The notes under the pieces were generated by a model that was given only the letters and a program-made list of their open reading frames with translations, had not been told where the DNA came from and ran no database searches. A stretch of DNA of 25,399 bases from Planctomycetota bacterium (GTDB lineage Bacteria; Planctomycetota; PLA2): NCBI GenBank assembly GCA_023150495.1, contig JAKLKT010000002.1, forward strand, positions 1 through 25,399, given 5' to 3'. Position numbers and translations under genes: made by a program. This document shows positions 4,104 through 24,440 of this stretch, piece after piece (position 1 is the first letter of the stretch; each line of letters starts with the position of its first letter).

Positions 4104-4245
4104 GGATTCCGACTTGCCGCTCCGCGAGCGGCGCACCCCATGCTACCGCCCGCTCCAAGGCGCCCGCTGCTCGCCGGCTGCCGCGGCCCAAGCTGACGTC
4201 CCGCAGCGGCGAAGGAACGGACGTTCGACACGATGCGCGGACCTC

Positions 4246-5313
4246 TCACGCCGAGAACCGGATGTTGAGGATGTCGCCGTCGGCGACGACGTACTCCCTC
4301 CCCTCGAGCCGCTGCTTCCCCTTCGCCTTGACGTCCCGCATGGAGCCGAGCGAGCGGAGGTCCTCGTAGGGGGTCACTTCGGCCCGGATGAACCCCTTCG
4401 CGAGGTCGCTGTGGATCTTCCCGGCCGCCGTGACCGCGTCGTCGCCCTCCTCGACGGTCCAGGCGCGCACCTCGTCCTCCCCCACCGTGAAGAACGACAG
4501 GAGGCCGAGGCCGCGGTAGCAGGCGAGGTTGAAACGGTCGCGCAGGGGCTCGGTGATGCCGTACTCCTCCGCGAAGAGGGCCCGGTCCTCGCCCTCGAGC
4601 CCGCTCAGGTCGGCCTCGAGCTTCAGGCAGGCCTCGAACCGGTGCCGGACATCGAGGGGTGAGGGGGGCAGGGGGGGAGCGGGGACGCCCTCCGCGAGGT
4701 TCACGACGACGACCGCGGGCTTCCTCGTGAGGAGGAGGAACCCCTTCACGAACGCCTCCTCCTCGGGGCGCAGCTCGACCTCGTGGGCCCCGCGCCCCTC
4801 GCGCAAGGCGGTGGCGAGGCGCTCCACGACCGCGCGCTCGCGCTCCACGCGGTCGCGCTCCTGCGGCTTCTTCCACTCGGTGGCGAGGCGCTCGAGGCGC
4901 CGCTCGCAGACCTCGAGGTCCGCGCTCAGGAACTCGAGTGCCAGGAGCTCGAGGTCGCGCGCGGGGTCCGCGGAGGGCTCGTCGTAGGCGTAGGACGACG
5001 TCGCGAACGCGCGGAGCACGAGCGCGAGGCCGTCCGCCTGCCGCATCTGGCCGAAGAGCTCGCCCCTGCGGTCGCTCTTCGCCGAGCCCGAGGGGATCCC
5101 CGGGTGATCCTCCACCGTGACCGTCGCCGGCGTGTACTTCTTCGGCTGGAAGAGGTCCCGGAGCCACTCGAGCCGCTGGTCCCTCACCTGCACGACCGCC
5201 ACGGAGGGCGCGGCGCCCGGCACCCCGGGCAGGAGCGGCACCTGCTTCGACGAGATGGCATTGAAGAGCGTCGTCTTCCCGCCGCCCGGACGTCCCACGA
5301 GTGCGATCTTCAT
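4246..5313 (-). CDS. ychF: YchF/OLA1-family ATPase (divergent paralog-like; TGS/DUF933 C-terminus), 355 aa
   Basis: MKIALVGRPGGGKTTLFNA, VRDQRLEWL..PKKYTPATV..D, SFFTVGEDEVRAWT, AGKIHSDLAKGFIRAEV, EGREYVVADGDILNIRF. GGAGG SD. Confidence 0.9.
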   Translation of the reverse strand: MKIALVGRPGGGKTTLFNAISSKQVPLLPGVPGAAPSVAVVQVRDQRLEWLRDLFQPKKYTPATVTVEDHPGIPSGSAKSDRRGELFGQMRQADGLALVLRAFATSSYAYDEPSADPARDLELLALEFLSADLEVCERRLERLATEWKKPQERDRVERERAVVERLATALREGRGAHEVELRPEEEAFVKGFLLLTRKPAVVVVNLAEGVPAPPLPPSPLDVRHRFEACLKLEADLSGLEGEDRALFAEEYGITEPLRDRFNLACYRGLGLLSFFTVGEDEVRAWTVEEGDDAVTAAGKIHSDLAKGFIRAEVTPYEDLRSLGSMRDVKAKGKQRLEGREYVVADGDILNIRFSA

Positions 5314-5332
5314 CGTGCCCCCCCTCCCATGG

Positions 5333-6079
5333 TCAAGCGGCCTCCCGCTTCCGCGCGAGCCGCGCCCCGACGAAGATCGCCCCCTCGTAGAGGAGGAGGA
5401 GCGTCACGGAGAGCGCGGTCTGGCTGATCACGTCGGGCGGCGTCAGGAGCGCGCCGACGACGAACGCGAGCACGATCGCCCAGCGCCGGTGGCGCCGGAA
5501 CGTCCCTGGCTCCACCACGCCGAGGCGCATGAGGAAGACCATGACGAGCGGGAGCTGGAACACGACGCCGAAGATGAACATCATCCAGGCGACGAGCGAG
5601 ACGTAGGGGCCGATCGAGATGAAGCTCTCGAGGCCCGTCGTGTCCGCCGCGAAGCCGACGAGGAACTCGAACGCCCAGGGGAGGACGTAGACGTAGGCCA
5701 GCGCCGCTCCGGCGAAGAAGAGGAGGAACCCCGGGAGCGCGTAGTACTTCACCGATCGCCGCTCGTGCGAGTAGAGCCCGGCCGCGACGAACCCCCAGAT
5801 CTGGTGCAGGATGTAGGGCCCCGCCAGCGCGATCCCCGCGAAGATGGAGATGACCATGCTCGCCATGAACCCCTCGGCGAGCGCGGTCTGGATGAGCCTC
5901 GTGTTCCTGTGCTTCTCGATCGCCTGGTCCAGCGGCGCGCGCAGGAAGGAGAAGACGCGATCCGCCTGCCAGAACGCGATGCCCGCGCCCGCGCAGGTGG
6001 CGACCACGCAGCGGAGGAGGCGCGTCCGGAGCTCGTCCAGGTGCTCCGAGAGGGTCATGCGCGTTCCGCCTTCGCTCAC
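5333..6079 (-). CDS. tatC: Sec-independent protein translocase subunit TatC
   Basis: MTLSEHLDELRTRL, QIWGFVAAGLYSHE, FGVVFQLPLV, GALLTPPDVISQ, LLYE, with six hydrophobic segments. Start uncertain (GTG 6085, GTG 6079 or ATG 6058); 6079 chosen from promoter geometry. Confidence 0.95.
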   Translation of the reverse strand: MSEGGTRMTLSEHLDELRTRLLRCVVATCAGAGIAFWQADRVFSFLRAPLDQAIEKHRNTRLIQTALAEGFMASMVISIFAGIALAGPYILHQIWGFVAAGLYSHERRSVKYYALPGFLLFFAGAALAYVYVLPWAFEFLVGFAADTTGLESFISIGPYVSLVAWMMFIFGVVFQLPLVMVFLMRLGVVEPGTFRRHRRWAIVLAFVVGALLTPPDVISQTALSVTLLLLYEGAIFVGARLARKREAA

Positions 6080-6087
6080 GGGCACGG

Positions 6088-6093
6088 ATTCTA
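6088..6093 (-). promoter_or_regulatory. Candidate -10 element TAGAAT for tatC-ychF
   Basis: Near-consensus -10 hexamer 8 nt upstream of GTG 6079. No -35 seen. Confidence 0.5.
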
Positions 6094-6142
6094 CGCGGGC
6101 CGGAGAAGGTTCGGGCCCGAGGGGTCTTCCCGGGAAATGCGA

Positions 6143-6166
6143 CGGGCGGCGCCGCTGCGCCGCCCG
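6143..6166 (-). terminator. GC hairpin (10-bp stem, 4-nt loop) after the coiled-coil gene; possible terminator or 3' stabiliser
   Basis: CGGGCGGCGC-CGCT-GCGCCGCCCG is a perfect stem 30 nt downstream of TAG 6197. Only a weak U-tract (TCGCATTT) follows. Confidence 0.4.
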
Positions 6167-6196
6167 CCTCTTCCGTATCGTCCGGGACTTCCCGGT

Positions 6197-7557
6197 CTAG
6201 TACTGGATGAAGGTCTGGAGGACGTCCTCGGTCACGACGATCGCGCCGAGCGTCGCCGCCGTGTCCATGACCTCGCGGATGCGCGCCGCGCGCTGCGCCT
6301 TCGCCTTCTCCTCGTTCGCCGCCGCCTCCTCGGGCGTGCCCGCCTCGGCCTCGATGTCGACCGGCAGCCGCTCTCGGCGAGGCGGCGCTTGGCGAGATCG
6401 CTCGGGTAGTAGCGCAGGTTGCCGTAGATGTGGACGCGGAGCTTCTTGTGCGGGTCGTAGAACGGGCTCGAGAAGCTCATCCCCTGGGCGACCGGCACGC
6501 GCGCGCTGAAGAGCTTGGTCACGCGGGCCTTGGCGCTCGTGTCGCTGACATCGATGACCTCGACCTCAGCCACGTTCTCGCGCACGTTGCCCTTGCCGAT
6601 GCGCCAGACGCGGAACTTCATGTTCGGCGCGACGCGGAAGTTCTTGCCCTTGTCGAGGAAGACGAGCCCCTGCCGCGCGTCCGCGACGAGGACCTCCCCG
6701 TCCTTCGGGTCCTCCTTCATCGCGATCTCCATCTTGCTCTTCTCGTTGATGATGCGGCTCAGGAGCGCCTGCTTCTCGATGTCGGACATGCGCTTCGACT
6801 TGCTGTACTCGGCGACGAGCGCCCCGATCTTCGCCTGCGACTCGTCGTTCCTCGCCGACGCCTGGTTCACCTGGTCCTGCATCTGGTCGGCGCGCGTCTT
6901 CTCGGTGTCGAAGGCCTGCGCCTTGCTCGCGATGTCGGTCTGGAACTGCGTGGCCTGCTCGTTGACCTTCGCCTGGAGCTGCGCGGTCCGGGTCTGGTAG
7001 CTCTTGTACTCGGTCTCGAACATGCCGTTGTTGTCCTCGATCGCCTTCGCCGCGTAGGCGAACTGCGACGCGAGCGGGGCGAGGAAGCCCTGGAAGGTGA
7101 TCGTCTCCTTCACGAAGGGCGTGCCGAAGAGCTGGATCGAGGTGGTGTCGCCCGTCTCGGTGACCCTCACGGTGTTGCCCGTCTTGTCCACCTGGTACTG
7201 GCGGTTCTTGACCTTCGCCGTGCTCTTCGAGGCGAGCTCCGCCGCCTGGTCCATCATCCACTGCGAGACCTTGTCCTTGATGAGGGCAGCCGTGGGATAG
7301 ACGGTCTTGCCGCCCTCCTCCTTGGGCTGGAGCTCGTTGATCCCGAGGCCGGCGATTTCGACCCACGCGCCGTAGGCCTTGCGCGCGCCGTCGAGGATCT
7401 CGATGCTCTGCGCGTTCTGCGCCCTGAGCTTCGCCGCCTCCGCCTGCCACGTGGACGCGTCGTCCGACTTCATGAAGAAGAGGCCGATCGCGACGACCAG
7501 CAGCACGATCATGGCGATGAACGGCATGTTGCCGATGCCGCGTTCCCGCATACGCAT
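6197..7557 (-). pseudogene. Membrane-anchored coiled-coil protein with a probable C-terminal BRCT-like region, interrupted by a frameshift/deletion near 6364-6370
   Basis: ATG 7557 with AAGGAG SD, an N-terminal TM helix (MPFIAMIVLLVVAIGLFF) and long heptad-like Q/K/E/A stretches. After ...RLAESGC the frame becomes Arg-rich nonsense, while the adjacent frame reads PVDIEAEAGTPEEAAANEEKAKAQRAARIREVMDTAATLGAIVVTEDVLQTFIQY* to TAG 6197. The BRCT call is from recall of similar planctomycete proteins and is not verified. Confidence 0.7.
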
Positions 7558-7626
7558 GAAGAGCTCCTTGGGCCCGTGGACAGGGGGCCGAGTGGTTCCG
7601 CCGGGCCGCTTCAACCCGGACGCGAA

Positions 7627-9835: not shown

Positions 9836-10435
9836 TCAGCCCTCCTTCCGCTCCCGCGCGAGCTCGAGGACCTTCAGCACGTACGCGCGCGTCTCGCCAT
9901 ACGCCTTGTGGCGGAGCGCGCGCGCCGGGTCGGGCTCCTCCGCGAGCCACTGGTCGACCTTCCCCGGGCCCGCGTTGTACGCCATCAGCGCGAGGCGCAC
10001 GTCGCCCCGGTACCGGTCGAGCATCCGGCGGAGGTAGCGGCAGCCGAGGTCGAGATTCACCTCGGGGTCGAAGAGCTCGTCGATCGTGACGTCGCGGCCG
10101 GCCATGTCCCGCGCCGTCGGGATCCGCACCTGCATGAGGCCGTAGGCCTGCGCGCGCGACACGGCCGACGGGTTCCCCCCGGACTCCGCCTCCACGACCG
10201 CGGCCACGAGGTCCGCGTCGAGGTTGTGGCGCGCGGCCGCCATCGCGATGTCCGGGAGGAGCTCCTCGACGGAGCGCCGGTGCGCGATCACGAGGATGGC
10301 GATGCTGCCGAGCAGCGAGAAGAGAAGGCCGCCCCAGATCAGGGGCCGGCGGCTGCCCTGCGGCGCCTCGGGGAGGGGGGGCGCGGGGGGGAGGGAGCCC
10401 TCTGATCCGGGGAGCGTCGCGGCCTCGTCCGGCAC
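9836..10435 (-). CDS. Membrane-anchored lytic transglycosylase (SLT domain), about 199 aa
   Basis: Last about 200 aa of ORF 9836..13633. TM segment LIWGGLLFSLLGSIAILVIA, VVEAESGGNPSAVSRAQAYGLMQV, LFDPEVNLDLGCRYL, ALMAYNAGPG, YGETRAYV. GTG start is tentative. Confidence 0.9.
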   Translation of the reverse strand: MPDEAATLPGSEGSLPPAPPLPEAPQGSRRPLIWGGLLFSLLGSIAILVIAHRRSVEELLPDIAMAAARHNLDADLVAAVVEAESGGNPSAVSRAQAYGLMQVRIPTARDMAGRDVTIDELFDPEVNLDLGCRYLRRMLDRYRGDVRLALMAYNAGPGKVDQWLAEEPDPARALRHKAYGETRAYVLKVLELARERKEG

Positions 10436-10458: not shown

Positions 10459-13400
10459 CTACCCGTTCTTCCGCGCCTCCTCGGCCTTCTTGTAGGCGTC
10501 CCACCACTCGTGGTACGCGCGGATCGCGGCCTCCGCGTCCTCGGCCGAGGTCGCGTAGCTGATCTCCTGCGGCGCCCCCGACTCGACCCGCATGTTGAGG
10601 AGGTAGGAGGCGTTCCGGGGGAGGTACCACTCCTTGTCCCGGAGCGCCTTGAGCAGCACCGGGACCATCGCGTCCGACGGCGCGGCGAGCGCCGGCGCCG
10701 CCACCCAGTCGGCGAACGCCCTCACGTCGTAGCCGCGCTGCTCGAGCGCGTCCCGGAACCACACGCGCGCGTTCGCCGTGCCCTGCGCCGTGGCCCAGCC
10801 CTGGTAGCTCTTCGCCTGCTCCGCGTAGCTCTCGCTCTCGAACGCCTGGCTCGTGAGGATCTGGAGGTGGCGGACCGCGGCGCGCGTGCTGCGGCCGGTC
10901 CGGAGCATCCGGATGAGCGGGACGAGCGCGGCGTCGTCCCATCGGCGGGCGAGGCCGAGCGCCGCGGCCTCGGCGGAGAGCTCGTCGTCGCCCTTCACGA
11001 CCGCGCGCAGGAGGTCGAGGGGCCGGTCGCTCCGGAACCGCGCGAGCACGTTGACGAGCGCCACGCGCTCCGGGTCGGCCGCCGCCGTCTCCTGGAGGCG
11101 CTCCATCAGTTGCTCGACGAGCGCCGGGCTCTCGAGGCGCACGAGCGCGTCGGCAGCGGCCGCGCGGACGCGCACATCCGCCTCCGTCGCGAAGACGCCG
11201 AGGATGATCCCCGCCCCCTCGGGCTCCCCCCCTTCGACGAGGCCGTCGATCGCGCGGACGCGCACCTCGGGGTTCACGTCGCCCGCCTCGCCCTTCTTCC
11301 GGCCGAGCAGCAGCGCGCGGGCACCCTCGCGCCCCTCGTTCCCGCCGAGGATGCCGAAGCCGAAGGCCGCGGCCCCGCGCACGTCGGCCGTCTCGTTCGT
11401 CGCGAGGTCGCGGAGGACCGGCAGCGACTCGGGCGCCTTCAAGCGCGCGAGCTCGCCGGCCGCGGCCATGCGGACGAGGAGCTCCTCGTCGTCGAGGCGC
11501 GCGACGAGGAGCGGCTTCGTTACCGCGGGGTCGCGCCCCGCGAGCGCCTCGACCGCCGCCTGACGCACCTTCCAGCGCGGGTCGACGGCGAGGGTCGCCA
11601 CGCGGCCGTCGTCCAGCGACGCGCAGAGGCGCGTGAGAAGGCGCTTCGCGTCGAGGCCGATCATGTCGGCGAGGATGTCGACGAGCGGCTTCGTGGCACG
11701 GTCGCCCGCCGCGGGCACGAGGAGGTCGATGGCCGCGGCGACGAACTCGTTCGCGTCCCGCTCCGAGGCCACGGCGGCCACGAAGGACCGCACCTCCGCG
11801 TCGGTGAGCGCGGCGCCGCCCCCCGGCAGCTCCCGCGCGGTGCGCGCCGCGTCGACGCGCTCCTCGACGGAGACGAGGCTCTTGAGCGACGAGGCGATCA
11901 TCCCGCGCAGGTGGGCGGCCCTCTCCGCGGGATCGGCGTGCTCCTTGAACCACTTCTGCTCCTCGAGGAAGAAGAGGTCCCAGTTCGGCTGCGTGTCGAT
12001 CGACCACCACCTCTGCCACGCGAACTCGAGGGCGAGCGCCTTGACCTCGCGCACGAGGTCGTCCCGGATCGCGGTCAGACCCTCGCCGGCTCCGAACGCC
12101 GCCGTCCGGTCGAGGTCGCCGACGCGGACGGTGACGACCGCCGCCTCGGGGTCCAACGCTCCCGCGTCGGCCTGCGGCGCCTCGAAGAACGCGTAGCGCT
12201 TGAGCAGCGCGACGAGGCGCGCCATGTCCGCCGCGGGGAGCGCGAGCGCGGTTCCGTGCAGATAGACGGGACGCTTCGAGCCCGCGGTGGTGAACCGCAC
12301 GCGGCGCCCGCCGGCGGAGGCCGGGGCGGTGGCGTCGATCTCGAGGTCGGGAAGGTCGCGCTCCTCGACGTCGAGCAGCTCCCGCTTCGCGCGGAACAGC
12401 CGGCCGTGGTCGGTCCACCACTGCGCCCAAGCGGGGGCGTTGTCGGGCAGCGTCTGGCCGGTGATCCGCCGGAGCATCGCGTAGGAGAGCGGCATGACCG
12501 AGCCGAAGTCGCGGTAGTGCTGGTTCCGGGCGCCGACCGAGTCGATGAGCACGATCGGGATCTCCCGGTCGAGCAGGCGGACGAGCTCCGGGTCGTTCGT
12601 CCGGAGCGCGGCCTGCGCGAGCGCGAGCGCGGCCGCCGCGCGGGCGAGCGGCTCCTTCACGTGGGCGAGCCCCCTCTCCCCGCGGAGCGCCTGCACCGTC
12701 GCGGGATCGAGCGAGGGCTCGCGGTAGGCCGAGGAGTAGAGCGTGAGCGCGAGGGCGGCGTAGGAGCGCTGGCGCCAGTAGCTCGCCTCCTTCGTGATCA
12801 GCTCGTTCAGCGCCTTGACGTTCTCGGGCTCCTTCCGCGCCGCGAGCAGCCGCATCGCCCGGCCCGCGACCTGCGGCGACTCGTCCCCGAGGGAGCGGTA
12901 GAACCAGTCCGCGACGTCCTTCCAATCGGCCTGCTTCGTCTCGACCAGCCGGTCGAGGAGGCGGAGGCCGATCTCGCGCGTGAACGGCCGCTCGGACTTG
13001 CGGCGGTCGAGCAGGTCGAGGACCGCCGGCAGGTTGGCCGCGGTCACGTGGTTCATCACGAACTGCGTCGCCTCGTGGCGGAGCGTCGTGTCCGAGGTCC
13101 GGAAGAAGCGGAACGCCTCGGAGACCGCGGTGTCCTTGTCGAGGCGCACGGCCGCCTCGAGGAAGACGGATGCCTGGTTGTGCTGCTCCTTCTCGGCGGC
13201 GACGAGCAGGAGCGTGACGACGTGCTCCTTGCCGCCGATGCGGCCGACCACGTACGCGGCGCCCGGCTTCAGCCCGGCCATCTCGGGCTCCGCGGCCACG
13301 AGGACGCCGACGACGAGCGGGAGGCTCCGCTCCTTCTGCACGATGAGCCGCTCCGCCGCCTGCCGCGCGGAGGGCGCGGGCCAGCCGCGCAGCCCCTGGA

Positions 13401-13578
13401 GCGTGCGCTCGAGGGAGTCGTCGCGCTGGTCCTCCGCGGGCGCCGCGGGCGCGGCCGACTCGGGCAGGTGGAACGCCGGCTTCTTCCTGCCCTCCTGGGC
13501 GAAGGCGGGCGGGCTGTCCGCGAGGAGCGCGAAGAGCGCGAGGAAGAAGGGAGGGTTCGGGAACCTGGGCCTCCGCAT
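10459..13578 (-). CDS. Large exported HEAT/armadillo-repeat protein, 1039 aa
   Basis: Signal-peptide-like N-terminus (FFLALFALLADSPPAFA). Repeated D/E-x-x-VR-x-AA-x-x-AL units (DPRWKVRQAAVEALA, DEELLVRMAAAGELA, ETADVRGAAAFGFG, NPEVRVRAIDGL, EADVRVRAAAADAL). Confidence 0.8.
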   Translation of the reverse strand: MRRPRFPNPPFFLALFALLADSPPAFAQEGRKKPAFHLPESAAPAAPAEDQRDDSLERTLQGLRGWPAPSARQAAERLIVQKERSLPLVVGVLVAAEPEMAGLKPGAAYVVGRIGGKEHVVTLLLVAAEKEQHNQASVFLEAAVRLDKDTAVSEAFRFFRTSDTTLRHEATQFVMNHVTAANLPAVLDLLDRRKSERPFTREIGLRLLDRLVETKQADWKDVADWFYRSLGDESPQVAGRAMRLLAARKEPENVKALNELITKEASYWRQRSYAALALTLYSSAYREPSLDPATVQALRGERGLAHVKEPLARAAAALALAQAALRTNDPELVRLLDREIPIVLIDSVGARNQHYRDFGSVMPLSYAMLRRITGQTLPDNAPAWAQWWTDHGRLFRAKRELLDVEERDLPDLEIDATAPASAGGRRVRFTTAGSKRPVYLHGTALALPAADMARLVALLKRYAFFEAPQADAGALDPEAAVVTVRVGDLDRTAAFGAGEGLTAIRDDLVREVKALALEFAWQRWWSIDTQPNWDLFFLEEQKWFKEHADPAERAAHLRGMIASSLKSLVSVEERVDAARTARELPGGGAALTDAEVRSFVAAVASERDANEFVAAAIDLLVPAAGDRATKPLVDILADMIGLDAKRLLTRLCASLDDGRVATLAVDPRWKVRQAAVEALAGRDPAVTKPLLVARLDDEELLVRMAAAGELARLKAPESLPVLRDLATNETADVRGAAAFGFGILGGNEGREGARALLLGRKKGEAGDVNPEVRVRAIDGLVEGGEPEGAGIILGVFATEADVRVRAAAADALVRLESPALVEQLMERLQETAAADPERVALVNVLARFRSDRPLDLLRAVVKGDDELSAEAAALGLARRWDDAALVPLIRMLRTGRSTRAAVRHLQILTSQAFESESYAEQAKSYQGWATAQGTANARVWFRDALEQRGYDVRAFADWVAAPALAAPSDAMVPVLLKALRDKEWYLPRNASYLLNMRVESGAPQEISYATSAEDAEAAIRAYHEWWDAYKKAEEARKNG

Positions 13579-16674: not shown

Positions 16675-17310
16675 CTACCAGGGGAAGGCGCCGGTCAGGA
16701 ACGGGTTGCTTCGCCGCTCCTTTCCGATCGTCGTCGCCGGGCCGTGGCCCGGATAGACGCGCGTCGCATCGGGCCACGCGAGGAACACCTCCCGGAGCGT
16801 CCGGCGGAGCGCGGCCGGGTCGCTGCCGGGGAGGTCGGAGCGGCCGATGGAGCCCTCAAAGAGGCAGTCGCCGCCGAACACGACGCCCTCCACGAGGAAC
16901 GCGACGTGGCCGGGGCTGTGGCCGGGCGCGTGGAAGACCTCGAAGCGGAGCCCCGCGGCCTCCACCGTCTCGCCGGGCCTGAGCTCGCGGTCGACGACGG
17001 GATCCTCGTACCCCGAGAGGCCGAACATCGCGGCCTGCGCGTCGACGTTCTCGAGCAGGAAGCGGTCCTCCGGGTGGATCGCGAACGGGATCCCGTAGCG
17101 CTCGCGGAGGTCCGGCACGGCCCCGATGTGGTCCAGGTGCCCGTGCGTGTTGAGGATGATCTCGGGCTTGAGCCCGAGCTCCTCGATCCGCCCGGCGATC
17201 CGGTCGGCCTCGTCGCCCGGGTCGATGAGGACGCACGGCTGCCCCTCGCCCTTCGCGACGAGGTAGCTGTTCTCCTGGAACGGCCCGGTGACCAGCGTCT
17301 CAACCAGCAC
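16675..17310 (-). CDS. MBL-fold metallo-hydrolase (glyoxalase II-like, YcbL/GloC family), 211 aa
   Basis: GPFQENSYL, LIDPGDE, LNTHGHLDHIGA (HxHxDH), APGHSPGHV, GDCLFEGSIGRSDLPG, VYPGHGPATTIGKERRSNPF. Confidence 0.92.
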   Translation of the reverse strand: MLVETLVTGPFQENSYLVAKGEGQPCVLIDPGDEADRIAGRIEELGLKPEIILNTHGHLDHIGAVPDLRERYGIPFAIHPEDRFLLENVDAQAAMFGLSGYEDPVVDRELRPGETVEAAGLRFEVFHAPGHSPGHVAFLVEGVVFGGDCLFEGSIGRSDLPGSDPAALRRTLREVFLAWPDATRVYPGHGPATTIGKERRSNPFLTGAFPW

Positions 17311-17334
17311 GTGATCTTTTCCCGATTCGGGCGC

Positions 17335-17390
17335 CCCATGTCCTTGCGCCGCAACGGCTTGCGGCAGGAGGGTGCGGCATTCGTGCCGCA
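17335..17390. repeat. Composite intergenic element, copy 1: about 30-bp spaced imperfect palindrome plus TGCGGCA-TTCG-TGCCGCA hairpin
   Basis: Same architecture and spacing as 23586-23642; see findings. Confidence 0.5.
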
Positions 17391-17478
17391 GACGACGGCA
17401 GGGACCGGGCGCCGGGTGCCTCGATGCGCATGCGCCCGACTACTGTATCCGGGCTGCAAGGCATCCGGCCGGCACGCG

Positions 17479-18585
17479 CTACTTCCGCTTCCCCGTGATC
17501 GGGGCGCCCGGCCGGCGGCGGTCGAGGATCCTGAGCTCGCCGCGGTCGAGGAGCAGCACGAACGCGTGGAGCGCGGTCGTGTAGGCGGCCTGCTGGTCGG
17601 CGAACACGGCGATCCCGCCGAAGGGGTCCTTCGAGTCGCACGTCACGCCGAACGCCTTCCCCTCGCACACGCAGCGGAGCACGCCGCCCTCCTCCTGCGC
17701 GTCGGCGATCCGCACGAAGTACGTCTCCTTGAAGCGCTTCCACTCCTCCGCGCCGAGCATGCGGCACGAAAGCCCCCCGAAGAACATGTTGAGGCAGGGC
17801 GATCCGTGCCCCTCGCACACGAGATTCAGGTTCTCCATGAGGTAGCGCGCGCTGCCCTCGAAGGCGTCGTCGCGCTCCATCCCGAGCGCGTGCCAGGCGA
17901 AGAGGGCGCCGGCCGTCCGCCCGACGTTGGTCTCCGCGAAGCCGGACTGCCGCTGGCCCGGGTCGTACGGGAAGCTCCCGTTCGGCAGGCGCGCGGCCCG
18001 GTAGTACTCCCGCGCGCGCCTGATCGGCTCCGCGCGCTCGTGCCCCTCGATCGCGCCGCAGAGCCCGAGGGCGGTGGCGACGCAGCTCGACGACGCGAGG
18101 AGCGTGGACGGGTATCCGCCGTGCCCCCAGCCCCCGTTCGCATCCTGCGCGGCGACGAGCAGGTCAAGGATGCGCTCGAGCGTCCCGTGCGCCTGCCGCG
18201 CCTCGATCCCGCGCAGCTCGAGCTCGCCGAAGAAGAGCGCCGCGGCGGCGAGCGGCCACGTGTACTGGCAGACCTTCCGCGAGTCCGCGACGCCGTGCGC
18301 GCCGGGCAGCGCGTCCGGGTCGAGGAGCCGCTTCCCGAGCGCGTCGATCCAGCGCACGAGGTACTCGCGGATCGCCCGCACGCGGTCCGGACCCGTGCGC
18401 GTGCCGCCGTCCATCAGGTAGACGAGGCCCGTGATCGCGTACGTGAAGGGCTTTCGCGGCGTGCCTTCGGAGTCGACGAGCTTTCCCACCTCGCGTTCGA
18501 GCCAGGCGACCGCGCGCCTCGCGGGGTCGGGCTCGCCCCCGGCGGCGGGAAGGAGGAGGAGCGCGAGGAGGAGGGAGGTGCGCAT
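17479..18585 (-). CDS. Exported protein with prenyltransferase/squalene-oxidase-like (alpha/alpha barrel) repeats, 368 aa
   Basis: Signal-peptide-like MRTSLLLALLLLPAAG. Repeats resembling QW/Q-x-x-x-GGW motifs: AAQDANGGWGH, RLPNGSFPY, ADAQEEGG. Function unknown. Confidence 0.65.
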   Translation of the reverse strand: MRTSLLLALLLLPAAGGEPDPARRAVAWLEREVGKLVDSEGTPRKPFTYAITGLVYLMDGGTRTGPDRVRAIREYLVRWIDALGKRLLDPDALPGAHGVADSRKVCQYTWPLAAAALFFGELELRGIEARQAHGTLERILDLLVAAQDANGGWGHGGYPSTLLASSSCVATALGLCGAIEGHERAEPIRRAREYYRAARLPNGSFPYDPGQRQSGFAETNVGRTAGALFAWHALGMERDDAFEGSARYLMENLNLVCEGHGSPCLNMFFGGLSCRMLGAEEWKRFKETYFVRIADAQEEGGVLRCVCEGKAFGVTCDSKDPFGGIAVFADQQAAYTTALHAFVLLLDRGELRILDRRRPGAPITGKRK

Positions 18586-18641
18586 CCACTTCCGCTACGC
18601 GCGGGGGCGCCAAGCGCTCCCCCCGGGCCGTTGGAGCCGCG

Positions 18642-18650
18642 TGATAGGCT
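18642..18650 (+). promoter_or_regulatory. Extended -10 promoter (TG-a-TAGGCT) for the mqnC operon
   Basis: TGnTANNNT 10 nt before ATG 18661. No SD before mqnC. Confidence 0.5.
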
Positions 18651-18660
18651 GAATCCCCCG

Positions 18661-19731
18661 ATGGCAAAGCTGCTCGACCGGGCCTCTGAGAAGGCCGCGG
18701 CCCACGAACGCCTGGACTTCGACGAGGGGGTGGCGCTGCTCACGGAGGGCGAGACCCACGTCCTCGCGGCGCTCGCCCACAAGCGGCGGCTGCACCTCCA
18801 CCCCGAGCCCGTCGTCACCTACATCGTCGAGAGGAACATCAACTACACGAACGCCTGCGTCACCTACTGCCGCTTCTGCGCCTTCTACCGGGCGCCGGGC
18901 GACAAGGAGGTGTACGTCCTCTCGCACGAGCAGATCGGCAGGAAGATCGAGGAGCTGCTCGAGGTCGGCGGCATCCAGATCCTCCTCCAGGGCGGCCACC
19001 ACCCGGACCTCCCGCTCACGTGGTACGAGGACATGCTCCGCTACATCAAGGAGCGCTATCCGGTCAACGTCCACGGCTTCTCGGCGCCCGAGATCGAGCA
19101 CATCGCGAAGGTGGAGGAGCTGCCGGTCGAGACCGTGATCCGACGGCTCCGCGAGGCGGGCCTCGGCACGATCCCCGGCGCCGGCGGCGAGATGCTCGTC
19201 GACCGCGTGCGCCGGATCATCGCGCCCCTGAAGACGACGACCGAGGCGTGGATCGACGTCCACCGCACCGCGCACAGGGTGGGCATGCGCTCCACCGCGA
19301 CCATGATGTTCGGCCACGCGGAGACGCTCGCGGAACGGGTCGAGCACATGGAGCGCGTCCGGCAGCTGCAGGACGAGACCAAGGGCTTCACCGCGTTCAT
19401 CCTCTGGACCTTCCAGCCCGAGAACACGGCGATGTGGCGGTACAGCAAGCTCGAGTCGCACCAGTACCTCCGCACGGCCGCGGTCGCGCGGCTCTACCTC
19501 GACAACGTCAGGAACCTCCAGGCGTCGTGGGTCACGCAGGGCGCGCGCGTCGCGGAGATCTCGCTCCGCTGCGGCGTGAACGACATGGGCTCGACGATGC
19601 TCGAGGAGAACGTCGTCTCCGCCGCGGGCACGACCTACGCGCTCGACGGCCCGGGGATCGAGCGGTCGATCCGCATGTGCGGGTTCGAGCCGCGCCGCCG
19701 GAACGTCTACTACGAGGCGGTGCTCTCGTGA
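18661..19731 (+). CDS. mqnC: Dehypoxanthine futalosine cyclase (radical SAM), 356 aa
   Basis: C-terminal part of ORF 16744..19731. RNINYTNACVTYCRFCAFYR (CxxxCxxC), ILLQGGHHP, SAPEI, PGAGGEML, TATMMFGH, FILWTFQPENT, NLQASWVTQG, NDMGSTMLEENVV. Confidence 0.93.
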   Translation: MAKLLDRASEKAAAHERLDFDEGVALLTEGETHVLAALAHKRRLHLHPEPVVTYIVERNINYTNACVTYCRFCAFYRAPGDKEVYVLSHEQIGRKIEELLEVGGIQILLQGGHHPDLPLTWYEDMLRYIKERYPVNVHGFSAPEIEHIAKVEELPVETVIRRLREAGLGTIPGAGGEMLVDRVRRIIAPLKTTTEAWIDVHRTAHRVGMRSTATMMFGHAETLAERVEHMERVRQLQDETKGFTAFILWTFQPENTAMWRYSKLESHQYLRTAAVARLYLDNVRNLQASWVTQGARVAEISLRCGVNDMGSTMLEENVVSAAGTTYALDGPGIERSIRMCGFEPRRRNVYYEAVLS

Positions 19732-20876
19732 GGGCGGCCCCCGCACCCCCCCGGCTTTCCGTCCCCGCGGTCTTCCGCACGAGCGACATCCTCCCGCAGG
19801 TCGAGAAGGCGCTCGCGGGCGAGCGCCTCACGTTCGAGGACGGCGTCCGCCTCTTCCAGTCGGAGGACGTCAACGCGCTCGGCTGGGCCGCGAACGCGGT
19901 CCGCGAGCGGCTCCACGGCAACGTCGCCTACTACCTGAAGAACCGCCACATCAACTACACCAACATCTGCAAGTACGACTGCATGTTCTGCTCCTTCTAC
20001 CGGAAGGAAGGGCAGGAGGGGGCGTGGCTCTGGTCGGTCGACCAGGTGCTCGAGCACGTCGCGCCGTACAAGGACAAGGGACTGAGCGAGTTCCACATCG
20101 TCGGCGGCGTGCATCCGACGCTCCCCTTCTCGTACTACACGGACATGCTGCGCGCCTTGAAGCGCGAGCACCCGGGCGTCGCGATCAAGGCGTTCACGGC
20201 GATCGAGATCGCCTACCTCGCGGAGCTCACCGGGAAGAGCCTCGGCGACGTGCTCAAGGAGCTCAAGGCGGCGGGGCTCGACATGGTGCCGGGCGGCGGC
20301 GCCGAGGTCTTCGCCGACCGCGTGCGCTACAAGGTCTGCCGCGACAAGGCCGACGCCGACCGCTGGTTCGAGGTGCACGAGACCGCGCACGCGCTCGGGA
20401 TCCCCACGAACGCGACGATGCTCTACGGCCACATCGAGACGGTCGAGGAGCGCGTGGACCACATCCTGCGCCTGCGCGACCTGCAGGACCGGACGGGCGG
20501 GCTCAAGAGCTACATCCCGCTCGCGTACCACCCGGACTTCAACCGCCTCGCGAAGCTCGGCGCGCCGAGCGGGCTCGACGCGCTCCGGAACGTCGCCGTC
20601 GGCCGGCTGCTCCTCGACAACGTGCCGCACATCAAGGCCTACTGGATCATGCTCGGCGTGAAGGTGGCGCAGCTCGCCCTCTCGTGGGGCGCGAACGACA
20701 TCGACGGCACGGTCACGTGGGAGCGCATCTACCACATGGCGGGCGCCGAGACGCCCGAGGGGCTCACCGAGGAGCGCCTGCGCGAGGTCATCCGCGAGGC
20801 GGGACGCGAGCCGGTGGAACGGGACGCGTTCTACAACGTGGCCGGATCGGAGGGGGCGCGGGGGAACCCGTCGTGA
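19728..20876 (+). CDS. mqnE: Aminofutalosine synthase (radical SAM), about 382 aa
   Basis: [77 protein letters not shown]. The only upstream canonical start is the GTG overlapping the mqnC TGA (GTGA). Confidence 0.92.
19737..19750 (+). repeat. C-tract motif family B, copy 4
   Basis: 5 nt after the mqnC stop. Encodes the APAPP N-terminal extension of MqnE. Confidence 0.6.
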
Positions 20877-21106
20877 CCACCGTCCGGCTCTACGCGGGCG
20901 TGCGGGAGAGGGCGGGCCGGGCGCGGATCGACGTGGACGGGAGCTCCGTCGCCGCCCTGCGCGCGGCGCTCGCGAAGGCGTGCCCGGCGATCGCGGGGCA
21001 GCTCGCGTCCTGCCGCTTCGCCGTGGACGACGAGTTCGTCGCGGACGACGCGCCGGTGAGGCCGGGCGCGGTCGTGGACGTCATCCCGCCGGTCTCCGGA
21101 GGCTAG
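20873..21106 (+). CDS. moaD: MoaD/ThiS-family sulfur carrier protein, 77 aa
   Basis: End of ORF 20024..21106: [15 protein letters not shown]...RFAVDDEFV...[11 protein letters not shown]-terminal Gly-Gly. GTGA overlap with the mqnE stop. Confidence 0.92.
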
Positions 21107-21108
21107 CC

Positions 21109-22317
21109 GTGGGGATCGCGGCGCGCCGCCCGACCAAGGTGGTCCGCGTGGGCAACGTCCTCATCGGCGGGGAGAACCCGGTCGTCGTCCAGTCGATGAC
21201 GGACACCGACACCGCGGATGTCGCCGCGACCGTCGCGCAGGCGCGCGCGCTCGCGGACGCCGGCAGCGAGATCGTCCGGATCACGGTCAACAACGAGGAT
21301 GCCGCGAAGTCCGTCCCCGAGATCGCGAGGCGGCTCGACGGGGTCCCGCTCGTCGGCGACTTCCACTTCATCGGCCACCGGCTGCTCAAGGGCTTCCCGG
21401 CCTGCGCGAGATCCCTCGCGAAGTTCCGGATCAACCCGGGCAACGTGGGCCGCGGCGCGCGCCGCGACGAGAACTTCACCACGTTCATCGAGATCGCGAG
21501 GGACCTCGGGAAGCCGGTGCGGATCGGCGTCAACGCGGGGAGCCTCGACCCGGAGGTCCTCGCGCGGAAGATGGACGCGAACGCGAAGCGCAAGGAGCCG
21601 AGGAGCGCCGAGGAGGTCGAGAACGAGGCGCTCGTCGAGAGCGCGCTCGAGAGCGCCGAGGCCGCGCAGGCCCTCGGGCTCCCGGCCGACCGGATCATCC
21701 TCTCGTGCAAGGTCTCGCGGCTGCCGCAGATGGTGGCGGTCTACCGCACGCTGTCCCGGAAGACGGACCTCCCGCTCCACCTCGGCCTCACCGAGGCGGG
21801 CATGGGGATCAAGGGCGAGGTCGCGACGGCCGCGGCGCTCTCGATCCTCCTCGCGGAGGGCATCGGCGACACGATCCGCGCGAGCCTCACGCCGGAGGTG
21901 AAGGGCGACCGCACGCGCGAGGTGCGGCTCTGCGAGGAGCTGCTCCAGGCGCTGGGGCTCCGCTCCTTCCGCCCCTCGGTGACATCGTGCCCCGGCTGCG
22001 GCCGCACGACGTCGACCTTCTTCCGCGAGCTCGCGGAGCGGATCCAGTCGCACCTCGAGCGGAGCCGCGCGGAGTGGAAGACGCGCTACCCCGGCGCCGA
22101 GACGCTCAAGGTCGCGGTGATGGGTTGCGTGGTGAACGGGCCCGGCGAGTCGCGCGCCGCGGACGTCGGCATCTCGCTGCCGGGCAGCGGCGAGGAGCCG
22201 AAGGCGCCGGTCTACGTCGACGGGGAACGGCGCGTGCTCCTCGAGGGAGAGGGCATCGCGGAGGAGTTCATGGCGCTCGTCGAGGAGTATGTGAGGGGGC
22301 GTTGGGGGCCGAAGTGA
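21109..22317 (+). CDS. ispG: 4-hydroxy-3-methylbut-2-en-1-yl diphosphate synthase (flavodoxin-type), about 402 aa
   Basis: [92 protein letters not shown] 2 nt after the moaD stop. Confidence 0.97.
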
Positions 22318-22754
22318 GGGGTCCCCCGGAGCCCCCCCGCCTCCGCGACGATTTCCGGATCGTGGACGGAGAGATCGACCCTTCCGCCTCCTTCGAGGCC
22401 GTCCGCGACCCGCGCTGCGGCGCGATCGCGACCTTCCTCGGCACCGTGCGCGGCGAGAACGCGGGCCGGAAGGTCCTCCACCTGGAGTATGAGGTGCTCG
22501 AGTCGATGGCCATGAGGCAGTTCGCGCGGCTCGCGGGGGCGCTCCGGGAGAAGGGCGCGTGGCACGTGGCGATCCACCACAGGCGCGGGCGCGTGGAGGT
22601 CGGCGGCGTGAGCCTCGCGATCGCGGTGTCGGCGCCGCGGCGCGCGCACGCGCTCGAGGCCTGCGCGGCGGCGATCGAGCGGCTCAAGAAGGACGTGCCG
22701 ATCTGGAAGAAGGAGGTCTACCCGGACGGGCACCTCTGGCGGGAGGGCAGTTGA
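22314..22754 (+). CDS. moaE: Molybdopterin synthase catalytic subunit MoaE, about 146 aa
   Basis: End of ORF 21705..22754: [17 protein letters not shown]...[38 protein letters not shown] overlap with the ispG stop. Confidence 0.93.
22324..22339 (+). repeat. C-tract motif family A, copy 3
   Basis: 6 nt after the ispG stop. Encodes the PPEPP N-terminal extension of MoaE. Confidence 0.6.
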
Positions 22755-23572
22755 GCTCCGACGAGCGCCGCTCGATCTACGTGATCTCCGACTCGACGGG
22801 CGAGACGGGCGCCAAGGTCGTGCAGGCGGCGCTGCTCCAGTTCCGGCACGAGCAGGTGCGGCTCCGGATCGTCTCGAACATGCGCGACCCGGCGGCGCTC
22901 GCGGAGACGATCGACCGCGCGGCCGGCGAGGGGGCGCTCGTCGTCTACACGCTCGTGAACGCGGAGCAGCGGGTCGGGCTCCTGAACCGCGCGGCCCAGT
23001 ACGGCGTTCAGGCGGTCGACCTCATGGGCCCGCTGATGGCGCGGATCGGCGCGTGGCTCCACGAGTCGCCGGTGAGCCAGCCCGGGCTCCTGCACCGGAT
23101 GGACGCGGAGTACTTCCGGCGGATCGAGGCGCTCGAGTTCACGGTGAAGAACGACGACGGACAGAACCCGAAGAACTTCGTGCACGCCGACATCGTGGTC
23201 GTGGGCGTGAGCCGCACGTCGAAGACGCCCGTGTGCGCGCACCTCGCGCAGAGGGGGTACAAGGCGGCGAACCTTCCGCTGGTCCTCGACGTGAAGCCGC
23301 CGCCGGAGATCGACCTCGTTGAGCCGCGCCGCGTGTTCGCGCTGCACATCACGCCGCGGGCGCTCTTCGAGATCCGCCGGACGCGGCTCGCCGCGATGGG
23401 CGTCGAGGTGTCCTCGGAGGGCTACGCGGACCTCCCGCACATCCAGCGCGAGCTCGCGTGGGCGCGCGACATCGTGCGCGCGCACGCGGGCTGGACGACG
23501 ATCGACGTGACGAACCGCGCGATCGAAGAGACCGCCACCGAAATCCTCGCCCGCTTCCAGGTCAACGGTTGA
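22751..23572 (+). CDS. ppsR: Pyruvate,phosphate/water dikinase regulatory protein (DUF299 kinase/pyrophosphorylase), about 273 aa
   Basis: IYVISDSTGETG, YFRRIEALEFTVKNDDG, ADIVVVGVSRTSKTP, YKAANLPL, IDVTNRAIEETA. TTG start overlaps the moaE TGA. Confidence 0.93.
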   Translation: MSSDERRSIYVISDSTGETGAKVVQAALLQFRHEQVRLRIVSNMRDPAALAETIDRAAGEGALVVYTLVNAEQRVGLLNRAAQYGVQAVDLMGPLMARIGAWLHESPVSQPGLLHRMDAEYFRRIEALEFTVKNDDGQNPKNFVHADIVVVGVSRTSKTPVCAHLAQRGYKAANLPLVLDVKPPPEIDLVEPRRVFALHITPRALFEIRRTRLAAMGVEVSSEGYADLPHIQRELAWARDIVRAHAGWTTIDVTNRAIEETATEILARFQVNG

Positions 23573-23585
23573 CCTGCGCCGCGGC

Positions 23586-23642
23586 CGCAAGTGCTTTTCA
23601 GCACACGACTTGTGAGCGCCGGACTGCGCCACCGCTGGCGCA
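23586..23642. repeat. Composite intergenic element, copy 2: spaced imperfect palindrome plus TGCGCCA-CCGC-TGGCGCA hairpin
   Basis: Same architecture as 17335-17390. Confidence 0.5.
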
Positions 23643-23720
23643 CCTGGACCGACACCCGCTTCCGCACCTAGGCTCCCGCCGGCGGGCCCGGGGCCCTTCC
23701 CGCACGCAGGCGCCGCCGTC

Positions 23721-23726
23721 TAGGAT
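23721..23726 (+). promoter_or_regulatory. Candidate -10 element TAGGAT giving a leaderless ECF sigma mRNA
   Basis: Exactly 6 nt before GTG 23733. No SD. TTCCCG lies 18 nt upstream as a possible -35. Confidence 0.45.
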
Positions 23727-23732
23727 CAGGGC

Positions 23733-24440
23733 GTGGGGTTCGCCACCACGAGGTGGAGCGTGGTCAGGGCTGCGGGCGGCGGCTCGACCCCGGAGGCCCG
23801 GGCGGCGCTCGGGACGCTGTGCGCCGCCTACTGGTACCCGCTCTACGCGTTCGCGCGCCGCACCGGCCGCGACGCGCACGAGGCCGAGGACTCGGTGCAG
23901 GGGTTCTTGGCGAACCTGATCGAGCGGAACACGCTCGCGGTCGCGGATCCGGGACGCGGCCGGTTCCGGGACTTCCTCCTCGCCGCGTTCCGGAACCACC
24001 TCCGCAACGAGGCGGAGTCCGCGAGCGCGATCAAGCGCGGCGGCGGCCGCCTCACCCTCTCCCTCGATGCGGGGGCGGCGGAGGGCAGGTTCCTCGCCGA
24101 GCCGCGCCACGACGCGACGCCCGACCGTCTCTACGACCGCGACTGGGCGATCGCGGTCCTCGAGCGGGTCCTCGCCGGCCTGCGCCAGAGCTACGTCTCG
24201 GCCGGAAAGGAGCCGCTGTTCGACGCCCTCAAGGAGACGATCGCCGGCGGCGAGCGGGCCCTCCACGCGAGCCGCGCCGAGGTGCTCGGAATGACACCCG
24301 GCGCCCTCAAGGTCGCGGCACACCGGCTGCGACAGCGCTACAAGCGGGCGCTCCGCAACGAGATCGCCGCCACGCTCGCCGAAGGCGAGGACGTGGACGA
24401 CGAGATCAGGGCTCTGTTCGCGACCCTCGCCCCGGTGTAA
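23733..24440 (+). CDS. ECF-type RNA polymerase sigma factor of the kinase-associated PVC type, 235 aa
   Basis: FATTRWSVV, LCAAYWYPLYAFARR, EAEDSVQGF, DPGRGRFRDFL, YDRDWA, LKVAAHRLRQRY. Immediately upstream of a Ser/Thr kinase. Confidence 0.9.
   Translation: MGFATTRWSVVRAAGGGSTPEARAALGTLCAAYWYPLYAFARRTGRDAHEAEDSVQGFLANLIERNTLAVADPGRGRFRDFLLAAFRNHLRNEAESASAIKRGGGRLTLSLDAGAAEGRFLAEPRHDATPDRLYDRDWAIAVLERVLAGLRQSYVSAGKEPLFDALKETIAGGERALHASRAEVLGMTPGALKVAAHRLRQRYKRALRNEIAATLAEGEDVDDEIRALFATLAPV

Follow-up and report, generated by a model that had tools for sequence, protein, structure and literature searches.

Why would an operon hold apart the genes for the two subunits of a single enzyme? MoaD and MoaE, which together form molybdopterin (MPT) synthase, are a textbook pair. 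In a 25,399-nucleotide stretch of DNA of a Planctomycetota bacterium (from contig JAKLKT010000002.1; "the window" below means this whole stretch), direct reading of the sequence gives six same-strand genes at positions 18661 to 23572, namely mqnC, mqnE, moaD, ispG, moaE and a gene for a ppsR/PDRP-type regulator. The isoprenoid gene ispG thus stands between moaD and moaE, in an array that begins with two menaquinone genes. We consider it quite likely that the array is an ordinary compact operon, and that the placement of ispG is a family-specific by-product of the fusion of two units and of the replacement of ispG.

The synteny on which this reading is built was surveyed in the whole class, represented here by one order with two families and 40 species genomes. 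In the sister family, the genes form two units. One is mqnC-mqnE-ispG, with a short form of ispG. It is contiguous and on one strand in all four loci that were fetched (L143 to L146). Of 11 genomes in which both mqnE and ispG were found, 10 have them side by side, and in the other one mqnE lies at a contig end. The other unit is moaD-moaE-ppsR. Among 12 sister-family loci examined, nine have moaD directly before moaE, and the remaining three have moaE-ppsR with no match to MoaD, which is a short query. None of these 12 loci has an mqn gene beside moaE. The two units share a strand, with mqnC-mqnE-ispG 1.4 to 27 kb upstream of the other (9.5 kb in one genome), and the genes between them (fatty-acid desaturase, glycosyltransferase, epimerase) are unrelated. 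Across the class, coordinates place moaE next to ppsR in 35 of the 36 genomes that have both genes.

The window's own family, with eight genera (g1 to g8), has the two units fused, and the fusion takes several forms. The window's genus (g1, the window plus two genomes) and g5 have the complete order mqnC-mqnE-moaD-ispG-moaE-ppsR. Genus g7 has the same order up to moaE, with ppsR on a separate contig, and g6 has it up to ispG, where the contig ends. In g3, mqnC-mqnE-moaD is followed by at least 2.3 kb of small opposite-strand open reading frames (ORFs) up to the contig end, and ispG-moaE-ppsR is found on another contig. Two genera have mqnC-mqnE-moaD-moaE-ppsR, with the long form of ispG either 4.5 kb downstream (g2) or on another contig (g4). 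The order in g8 is mqnC-mqnE-ispG-moaD-moaE-ppsR, with a short ispG. Five genera (g1, g5, g6, g7 and, with the insert, g3) have long ispG after moaD, and moaE directly follows it in these genera wherever the contig allows. The split of moaD and moaE is common to four or five genera of the family, and moaD directly precedes moaE in three. In six of the eight genera, ispG of either form is inside the operon.

Given that the order recurs in related genera, it is not peculiar to the window's genome, which the sequence-only reading of this DNA, in calling for a synteny survey, had named as the outcome that would point to random shuffling. The link of mqnC and mqnE with ispG is real and conserved. 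The split of moaD and moaE is a derived rearrangement that was undone or further broken in several genera. Literature searches aimed at mqn-moa and mqn-ispG clusters found no title or abstract that describes either, and no paper listed by them describes linkage of moaE with ppsR.

Two of the broken loci have further peculiarities. In g7 (genome G036, locus L065), the final ~45 codons of moaE are present again at positions 10273-10407, with 64% identity to those of the window. The intact moaE is 3 kb upstream of this partial copy, and ppsR is on another contig, which suggests an insertion at the moaE-ppsR junction. In g3 (G031, locus L147), the small opposite-strand ORFs right after moaD occupy positions 4170-6516, up to the contig end, and have a lower G+C content. 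One of them weakly resembles a toxin with a restriction-endonuclease fold (PF15646, E = 6e-5, below the cut-off).

The ispG genes in these loci belong to two deeply different forms. The window's IspG, with 402 amino acids (aa), has 71-77% identity with its counterparts in its own family. Identity falls to 37-40% (BLASTP) with the sister-family form, which has ~320-370 aa, and to 34% with the IspG encoded inside the g8 operon. The long form (~400 aa) differs from the ~320-370-aa form by four insertions. By contrast, the g8 protein is 48-50% identical to the sister-family form, which makes it about as divergent as MoaE and PpsR are when the two families are compared. In a tree, 37 IspG sequences fall into two clades, and the branch that separates these has a length of 2.5 substitutions per site and 100% support. 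The nine long IspG sequences of the window's family are monophyletic (100%) and lie among long forms from other Planctomycetota families, and g8 IspG clusters with the short forms of the sister family (98%, with a long-branch warning).

Within the class, at most one ispG per genome was detectable with the query used, and four genera of the sister family (g9, g10, g18 and g22) gave no IspG match with it. The distribution of both forms in the phylum is patchy. In a sample of 200 Planctomycetota genomes, 176 gave an IspG match; about 20 of these have the long form, at 55-65% identity, and both forms are present in two genomes (G177 and G138). In other Planctomycetota families, long ispG has no moa, mqn or ppsR gene within 1.5 kb (16 loci), and ispG was not beside mqn or moa genes in 25 loci. 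The 16 loci speak against an arrival of long ispG together with moaD or moaE. Repeats flanking ispG, which could mark an insertion, were not found beyond the paralogy of mqnC and mqnE.

Together, these patterns suggest the following history, whose order of events we infer. In the class ancestor, mqnC-mqnE-ispG, with the short form, and moaD-moaE-ppsR would have been same-strand neighbours. The window's family would then have lost the DNA between them, giving mqnC-mqnE-ispG-moaD-moaE-ppsR, the state that remains in g8. In the rest of the family, a long-form ispG would have been acquired once and would have displaced the short one. The new gene would have ended one gene further down, between moaD and moaE, and would have been passed on through five genera; in other genera it would afterwards have moved out or become separated. 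Because two units fused and ispG was displaced, the split of moaD and moaE would be a historical by-product. The link between menaquinone genes and those for the molybdenum cofactor (Moco) would likewise have arisen by later fusion of separate units in one family, the sister family having only loose synteny.

Displacement of genes in operons by xenologs or paralogs is a generally known process, and the proposed replacement resembles it in that there is one ispG per genome, with two divergent forms interchanged within a family, and in that the new ispG lies within ~250 bp of the old position. It differs in that the incoming ispG lies beyond moaD and not in the exact slot, which splits the genes of a two-subunit enzyme.

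The coordinates of the array and of other features in the window are given in Table 1.

Table 1. The mqnC-ppsR array and other features of the window
Feature	Position	Strand	Remarks
Conserved leader/promoter block (putative) upstream of mqnC	18612..18660	+	~50 nt, nearly identical in three genomes of the genus
mqnC, cyclic dehypoxanthinyl futalosine synthase (radical S-adenosylmethionine, SAM)	18661..19731	+	ATG start
mqnE, aminofutalosine synthase (radical SAM)	19728..20876	+	GTG start over mqnC stop (GTGA)
moaD, small sulfur-carrier subunit of molybdopterin synthase	20873..21106	+	GTG start over mqnE stop (GTGA)
ispG (gcpE), MEP-pathway enzyme, long form, 402 aa	21109..22317	+	GTG start, 2 nt past moaD stop (TAGccGTG)
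moaE, catalytic subunit of molybdopterin synthase	22314..22754	+	GTG start over ispG stop (GTGA)
ppsR/PDRP-family bifunctional kinase-pyrophosphorylase	22751..23572	+	TTG start over moaE stop (TTGA)
Divergent gene upstream of the array	17479..18585	-	368 aa, hydrophobic N-terminus, no Pfam match
Small A/T-containing hairpin	23587..23606		GTGCTTTTCAGCAC; just past ppsR stop, in otherwise very GC-rich DNA
HEAT-repeat protein gene	10459..13578	-	1039 aa
Protein gene	6232..7614	-	460 aa, no Pfam match

Profile searches and intact catalytic motifs bear out all six gene identities that had been proposed from the sequence alone. MqnC and MqnE are paralogs, and each scores best on, and above the cut-off of, its own one of the two paralogous NCBIfam equivalog models. 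MqnC reaches 473.6 bits on TIGR03699 (cut-off 428.1) vs 331.4 bits on the MqnE model, and MqnE reaches 499 bits on TIGR03700 (cut-off 434.6) vs 384.7 bits on the MqnC model. Both have the radical-SAM motif CxxxCxxC (CVTYCRFC at residue 66 of MqnC and CKYDCMFC at residue 81 of MqnE). IspG scores 434.6 bits on NF001540 (cut-off 345), and its [4Fe-4S] ligands, three Cys and a Glu, are intact in SCPGCGR and GCVVNGPGE. MoaD belongs to the ThiS/MoaD beta-grasp family (PF02597, 54.3 bits, cut-off 22.5) and keeps the Gly-Gly at its C-terminus (...PPVSGG). MoaE matches PF02391 with 104.7 bits and has the conserved active-site lysines, with the motif segment at residue 125. Its best match among solved structures is human MOCS2B (E = 4.9e-26), with the common lysine motif VPIWKKE, and the best such matches are without exception MPT synthases.

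The product of the sixth gene is a full-length match to PF03618 (291 bits, profile positions 1-256), scores 281 bits on NF003742 (cut-off 225) and has an intact P-loop (GVSRTSKT). Since it has only 129.8 bits on the PpsR-specific equivalog model NF049928, vs a cut-off of 350, we assign this regulator at the subfamily level only. The one dikinase found in the genome is a pyruvate,phosphate dikinase (PPDK; TIGR01828, 1190 bits), encoded on another contig. Because of this, the sixth gene appears best described as a PDRP/PpsR-family regulator of the PDRP type; the earlier label PpsR was right as to family, but a PDRP-type name fits better.

The junctions between the genes, in order GTGA, GTGA, TAG plus 2 nt, GTGA and TTGA, are exactly those listed in the sequence-only reading. 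Because the window has a G+C content of 72%, lists of its ORFs are noisy. The start codons are predictions, each being the sole in-frame ATG, GTG or TTG that retains the residues conserved among relatives. Five successive junctions of at most 2 nt are far tighter than expected for unlinked genes. This tight packing is kept across the window's family, where most other junctions range from -4 to a few tens of nt, and at all 10 mqnE-moaD junctions covered by the family loci, a 4-nt overlap (in-frame NTG over TGA) can be read. The moaD-ispG junction is the only one that has no overlap, with a gap of 2 nt in the window and of up to 43 nt in relatives. A G-rich motif resembling a Shine-Dalgarno (SD) sequence lies 4-10 nt before every downstream start; that of ispG is GGAGG, 6 nt upstream of the start and inside moaD.

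That all five downstream starts are non-ATG had been emphasized previously, and this is true in the window. However, the non-ATG starts at these junctions are specific to the genus. In relatives with lower G+C content these junctions read ATGA, and weak starts are therefore not a conserved requirement. Genome-wide, coding-like NTGA junctions comprise 246 with GTG, 236 with ATG and 28 with TTG, with 73 with CTG as a gauge of background, and an A precedes TGA in 21% of gene ends. Given this split, the run of four non-ATG overlaps is only mildly unusual (roughly p = 0.04-0.08, calculated post hoc). The 236 ATGA vs 246 GTGA junctions also rule out pressure on the G+C content of third codon positions as the sole cause of GTGA in place of ATGA.

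The array has the properties of a single operon: its genes are co-directional, their junctions overlap or span a few nt, and no internal terminator-like site was found on the plus strand. This arrangement suggests that the six genes are probably transcribed as one polycistronic message. The block just upstream of mqnC is a candidate for the operon promoter. It contains an extended -10-like sequence, TGATAGGCT, ~10 nt before the mqnC ATG. The sequence beyond the block diverges within the genus, and in one congeneric genome 2 kb is inserted there. Transcription would start in this block, with a very short leader, and ribosomes would reach the downstream genes through coupling or re-initiation at the overlapping stop and start signals with their SD-like motifs. 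Within 20 nt of the mqnC ATG, we found no SD-like motif. A scan for sigma-70 consensus promoters and intrinsic terminators found nothing on the operon strand, such a scan being uninformative for Planctomycetota. An Rfam search of positions 17300-24000 gave no family match, which includes the absence of a Moco riboswitch.

The divergent gene upstream of the array lies 2 kb further from mqnC in a congeneric genome. At the other end, where a small hairpin follows the ppsR stop, the region 23565-23740 folds no more stably than shuffled sequence (z = 0.07). The genes for the HEAT-repeat protein and for the 460-aa protein are found among housekeeping genes (recG, rho, tatC, ychF, cinA and a glmU-like gene).

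The remaining question is whether moaD and moaE serve Moco synthesis. The host genome is a metagenome-assembled genome (MAG) of 3.9 Mb in 764 contigs and is 77% complete. The window's moaE is the only one found in it. There are five genes of the ThiS family, namely the window's moaD, one thiS and three that are SAMP1/CysO-like, and the window's moaD is the only one of the five whose best match is a bacterial MoaD. The genome also has moaA, three moeA genes, a thiF/moeB gene and four to five genes for molybdopterin oxidoreductases. In this 77%-complete MAG we did not find moaC, which is present in all four close relatives (both congeneric genomes and two further members of the family). A match to moaE occurs in 36 of the 40 genomes of the class, including all 17 of high quality, and is nearly always single. 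The other Moco genes (moaA, moaC and moeA) and the other mqn genes are outside the six-gene unit. As far as gene content tells, MoaD and MoaE are the housekeeping molybdopterin synthase and MoaD still serves MoaE, because there is a single moaE and because genes for the Moco pathway and for molybdoenzymes are present in the genome or in its relatives. The check on Moco genes proposed in the sequence-only reading was answered for moaA, moeA, thiF/moeB and the molybdoenzymes in the genome itself, but for moaC only in relatives. To the extent that sequence can tell, this amounts to the complete Moco pathway which that reading had named among the findings against a thio-quinone.

Several observations weigh against the reading that we favour. 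In a maximum-likelihood tree of concatenated operon proteins, g4 is at the base of the family (support 91/84), and g8 lies inside the family, paired with g2 as its sister (93/97). A nested g8 would need either a long coexistence of both ispG forms followed by several losses, or a re-acquisition of the short form. A position of g8 as sister to all other genera is not rejected by the approximately unbiased (AU) test (p = 0.166), which is the extent of what the test says for it, and the tree is made from the operon genes themselves and not from independent markers. It is because this tree nests g8 while the AU test leaves a basal g8 open that our order of events is put forward as an inference. 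Moreover, at least two relocations of long ispG are needed, whether its first site was within the operon or outside it. Regarding the proteins, MoaD scores 59.2 bits on the equivalog model TIGR01682, below its cut-off of 66.15, yet this is its best NCBIfam model, and MoaE falls under the cut-offs of both NCBIfam equivalog models. That moaE is single-copy is not proven for the window's MAG, which is only 77% complete. Finally, co-transcription and translational coupling of the genes are presumed from their spacing alone.

The observations on Moco genes bear directly on the idea, offered earlier as a speculation, that MoaD with MoaE donates sulfur to a sulfur-modified naphthoquinone such as methionaquinone. 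Its sole support is that moaD adjoins mqnC and mqnE in the window's family. As far as sequence can show, moaE is single and is needed by the Moco pathway and molybdoenzyme genes that are present, so that an additional or Moco-independent MoaD/MoaE pair for a thio-quinone is not supported. Moreover, MoaE keeps the lysine motif of MPT synthases and has only such enzymes as its best solved relatives, moaD-moaE-ppsR is conserved class-wide where no mqn genes are nearby, profile searches found no methyltransferase or methylthiotransferase in the six-gene unit, and no title or abstract in our literature search linked mqn and moa in one cluster. We regard the idea as extremely improbable, and the split of moaD and moaE does not imply new sulfur chemistry. 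A less radical proposal in the sequence-only reading was that of a coordinated respiratory-cofactor operon, in which selection retains the fusion so that menaquinone, isoprenoid, Moco and PEP (phosphoenolpyruvate)/pyruvate functions are co-expressed for respiration with quinone-linked molybdoenzymes. This is compatible with the history that we favour and adds a claim of selection to it. The unit is indeed tight, and its mqnC/mqnE-ispG part is strong, given that this trio is found class-wide. Moreover, two deeply different forms of ispG are found at two junctions of the same operon, as selection for an ispG within the unit would give, the fused order with its tight junctions persists over eight genera, and molybdopterin oxidoreductase genes are present. 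The part that did not hold up as well is the link to Moco, which is weak: it came about when the units fused at a later stage, and it has come apart in several genera. Since ispG has left the operon in g2 and g4, an accessory insert of at least 2.3 kb follows moaD in g3 and the adjacency of ppsR is lost in g7, the six genes can do without being expressed together. The sister family has the units kilobases apart with unrelated genes between them, moaA, moaC, moeA and the other mqn genes lie outside the unit, and ispG is not beside mqn or moa genes in the 25 loci of other Planctomycetota. Selection for such a regulon is therefore only a tentative possibility.

The pairing of moaE with ppsR raises a separate possibility, which is that the PDRP-like kinase has a target other than PPDK or in addition to it, for example in Moco or quinone synthesis. 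The near-universal adjacency of the two genes in the class, with a 4-nt overlap in the window's genus, and the location of ppdK on a separate contig are what such a target could explain. Yet the regulator is a full-length, typical member of PF03618 with an intact P-loop, a gene for PPDK, the canonical target, is present in the genome, and nine MoaE loci of other lineages have no adjacent PpsR. Adjacency that is conserved within one class can be plain inheritance, which is our default reading of the pairing, with a functional link having a low probability; another target for the kinase is accordingly very unlikely. We would give similarly little credence to a broader version, in which the moaE-ppsR pairing and the retained ispG form a circuit that ties menaquinone, isoprenoid and Moco synthesis to PEP/pyruvate through the kinase, with a target beyond PPDK, or through a shared demand for reductant or Fe-S clusters. 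An alternative of another kind concerns expression. An internal promoter, carried in by long ispG or created by its arrival, might drive ispG-moaE-ppsR separately from mqnC-mqnE-moaD. The moaD-ispG junction alone lacks an overlap, it is where g3 has its insert and its separate ispG-moaE-ppsR, and the consensus promoter scan is not informative for these bacteria. With a gap of only 2 nt in the window and GGAGG inside moaD, however, there is no intergenic room at this junction, and no promoter-like or terminator-like site was detected on the operon strand. A divided unit thus seems improbable.

Read as an ordinary operon shaped by fusion and by replacement of ispG, the locus is a clean, datable case of operon building and remodelling, in which one family would have joined two units that are conserved in a class. 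The essential gene ispG, present as a single copy, would then have given way to a deeply divergent form one slot away, which split the genes of a two-subunit enzyme without apparent harm. Adjacency of moaD and moaE is thereby not obligatory. The linkages mqnC-mqnE-ispG and moaE-ppsR could guide work on the co-regulation of menaquinone and isoprenoid synthesis.

Each part of the array has known counterparts. As in bacterial moa operons such as moaABCDE of E. coli, and in fused MoaD-MoaE proteins (MoaX of M. tuberculosis; PDB 9jbd; see also PMC4326299), there are two subunits, with Gly-Gly at the C-terminus of MoaD and the lysine motif in MoaE, the genes for both are single-copy, and other Moco genes are found in the window's genome or in close relatives. 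The window differs in that 1.2 kb of unrelated ispG parts moaD from moaE, and in that these genes are not near moaA, moaB or moaC, but are set between futalosine genes and a PDRP-type regulator. Compared with the mqnA-E sets of the futalosine pathway in Streptomyces, Helicobacter and Thermus (see also PMC3914697), MqnC and MqnE of the window are conventional, scoring over the equivalog cut-offs with intact radical-SAM motifs. By contrast, the unit has only mqnC and mqnE of this set, and these are joined to ispG across a class of Planctomycetota. Like the regulators in the ppsR-ppsA pair of E. coli and in the PDRP-PPDK pairs of bacteria and plants, that of the window belongs to the kinase/pyrophosphorylase family and has an intact P-loop, and its genome contains a gene for a PPDK target. 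Unlike in those pairs, the regulator gene is away from that of its target and overlaps moaE, a pairing that extends throughout the class.

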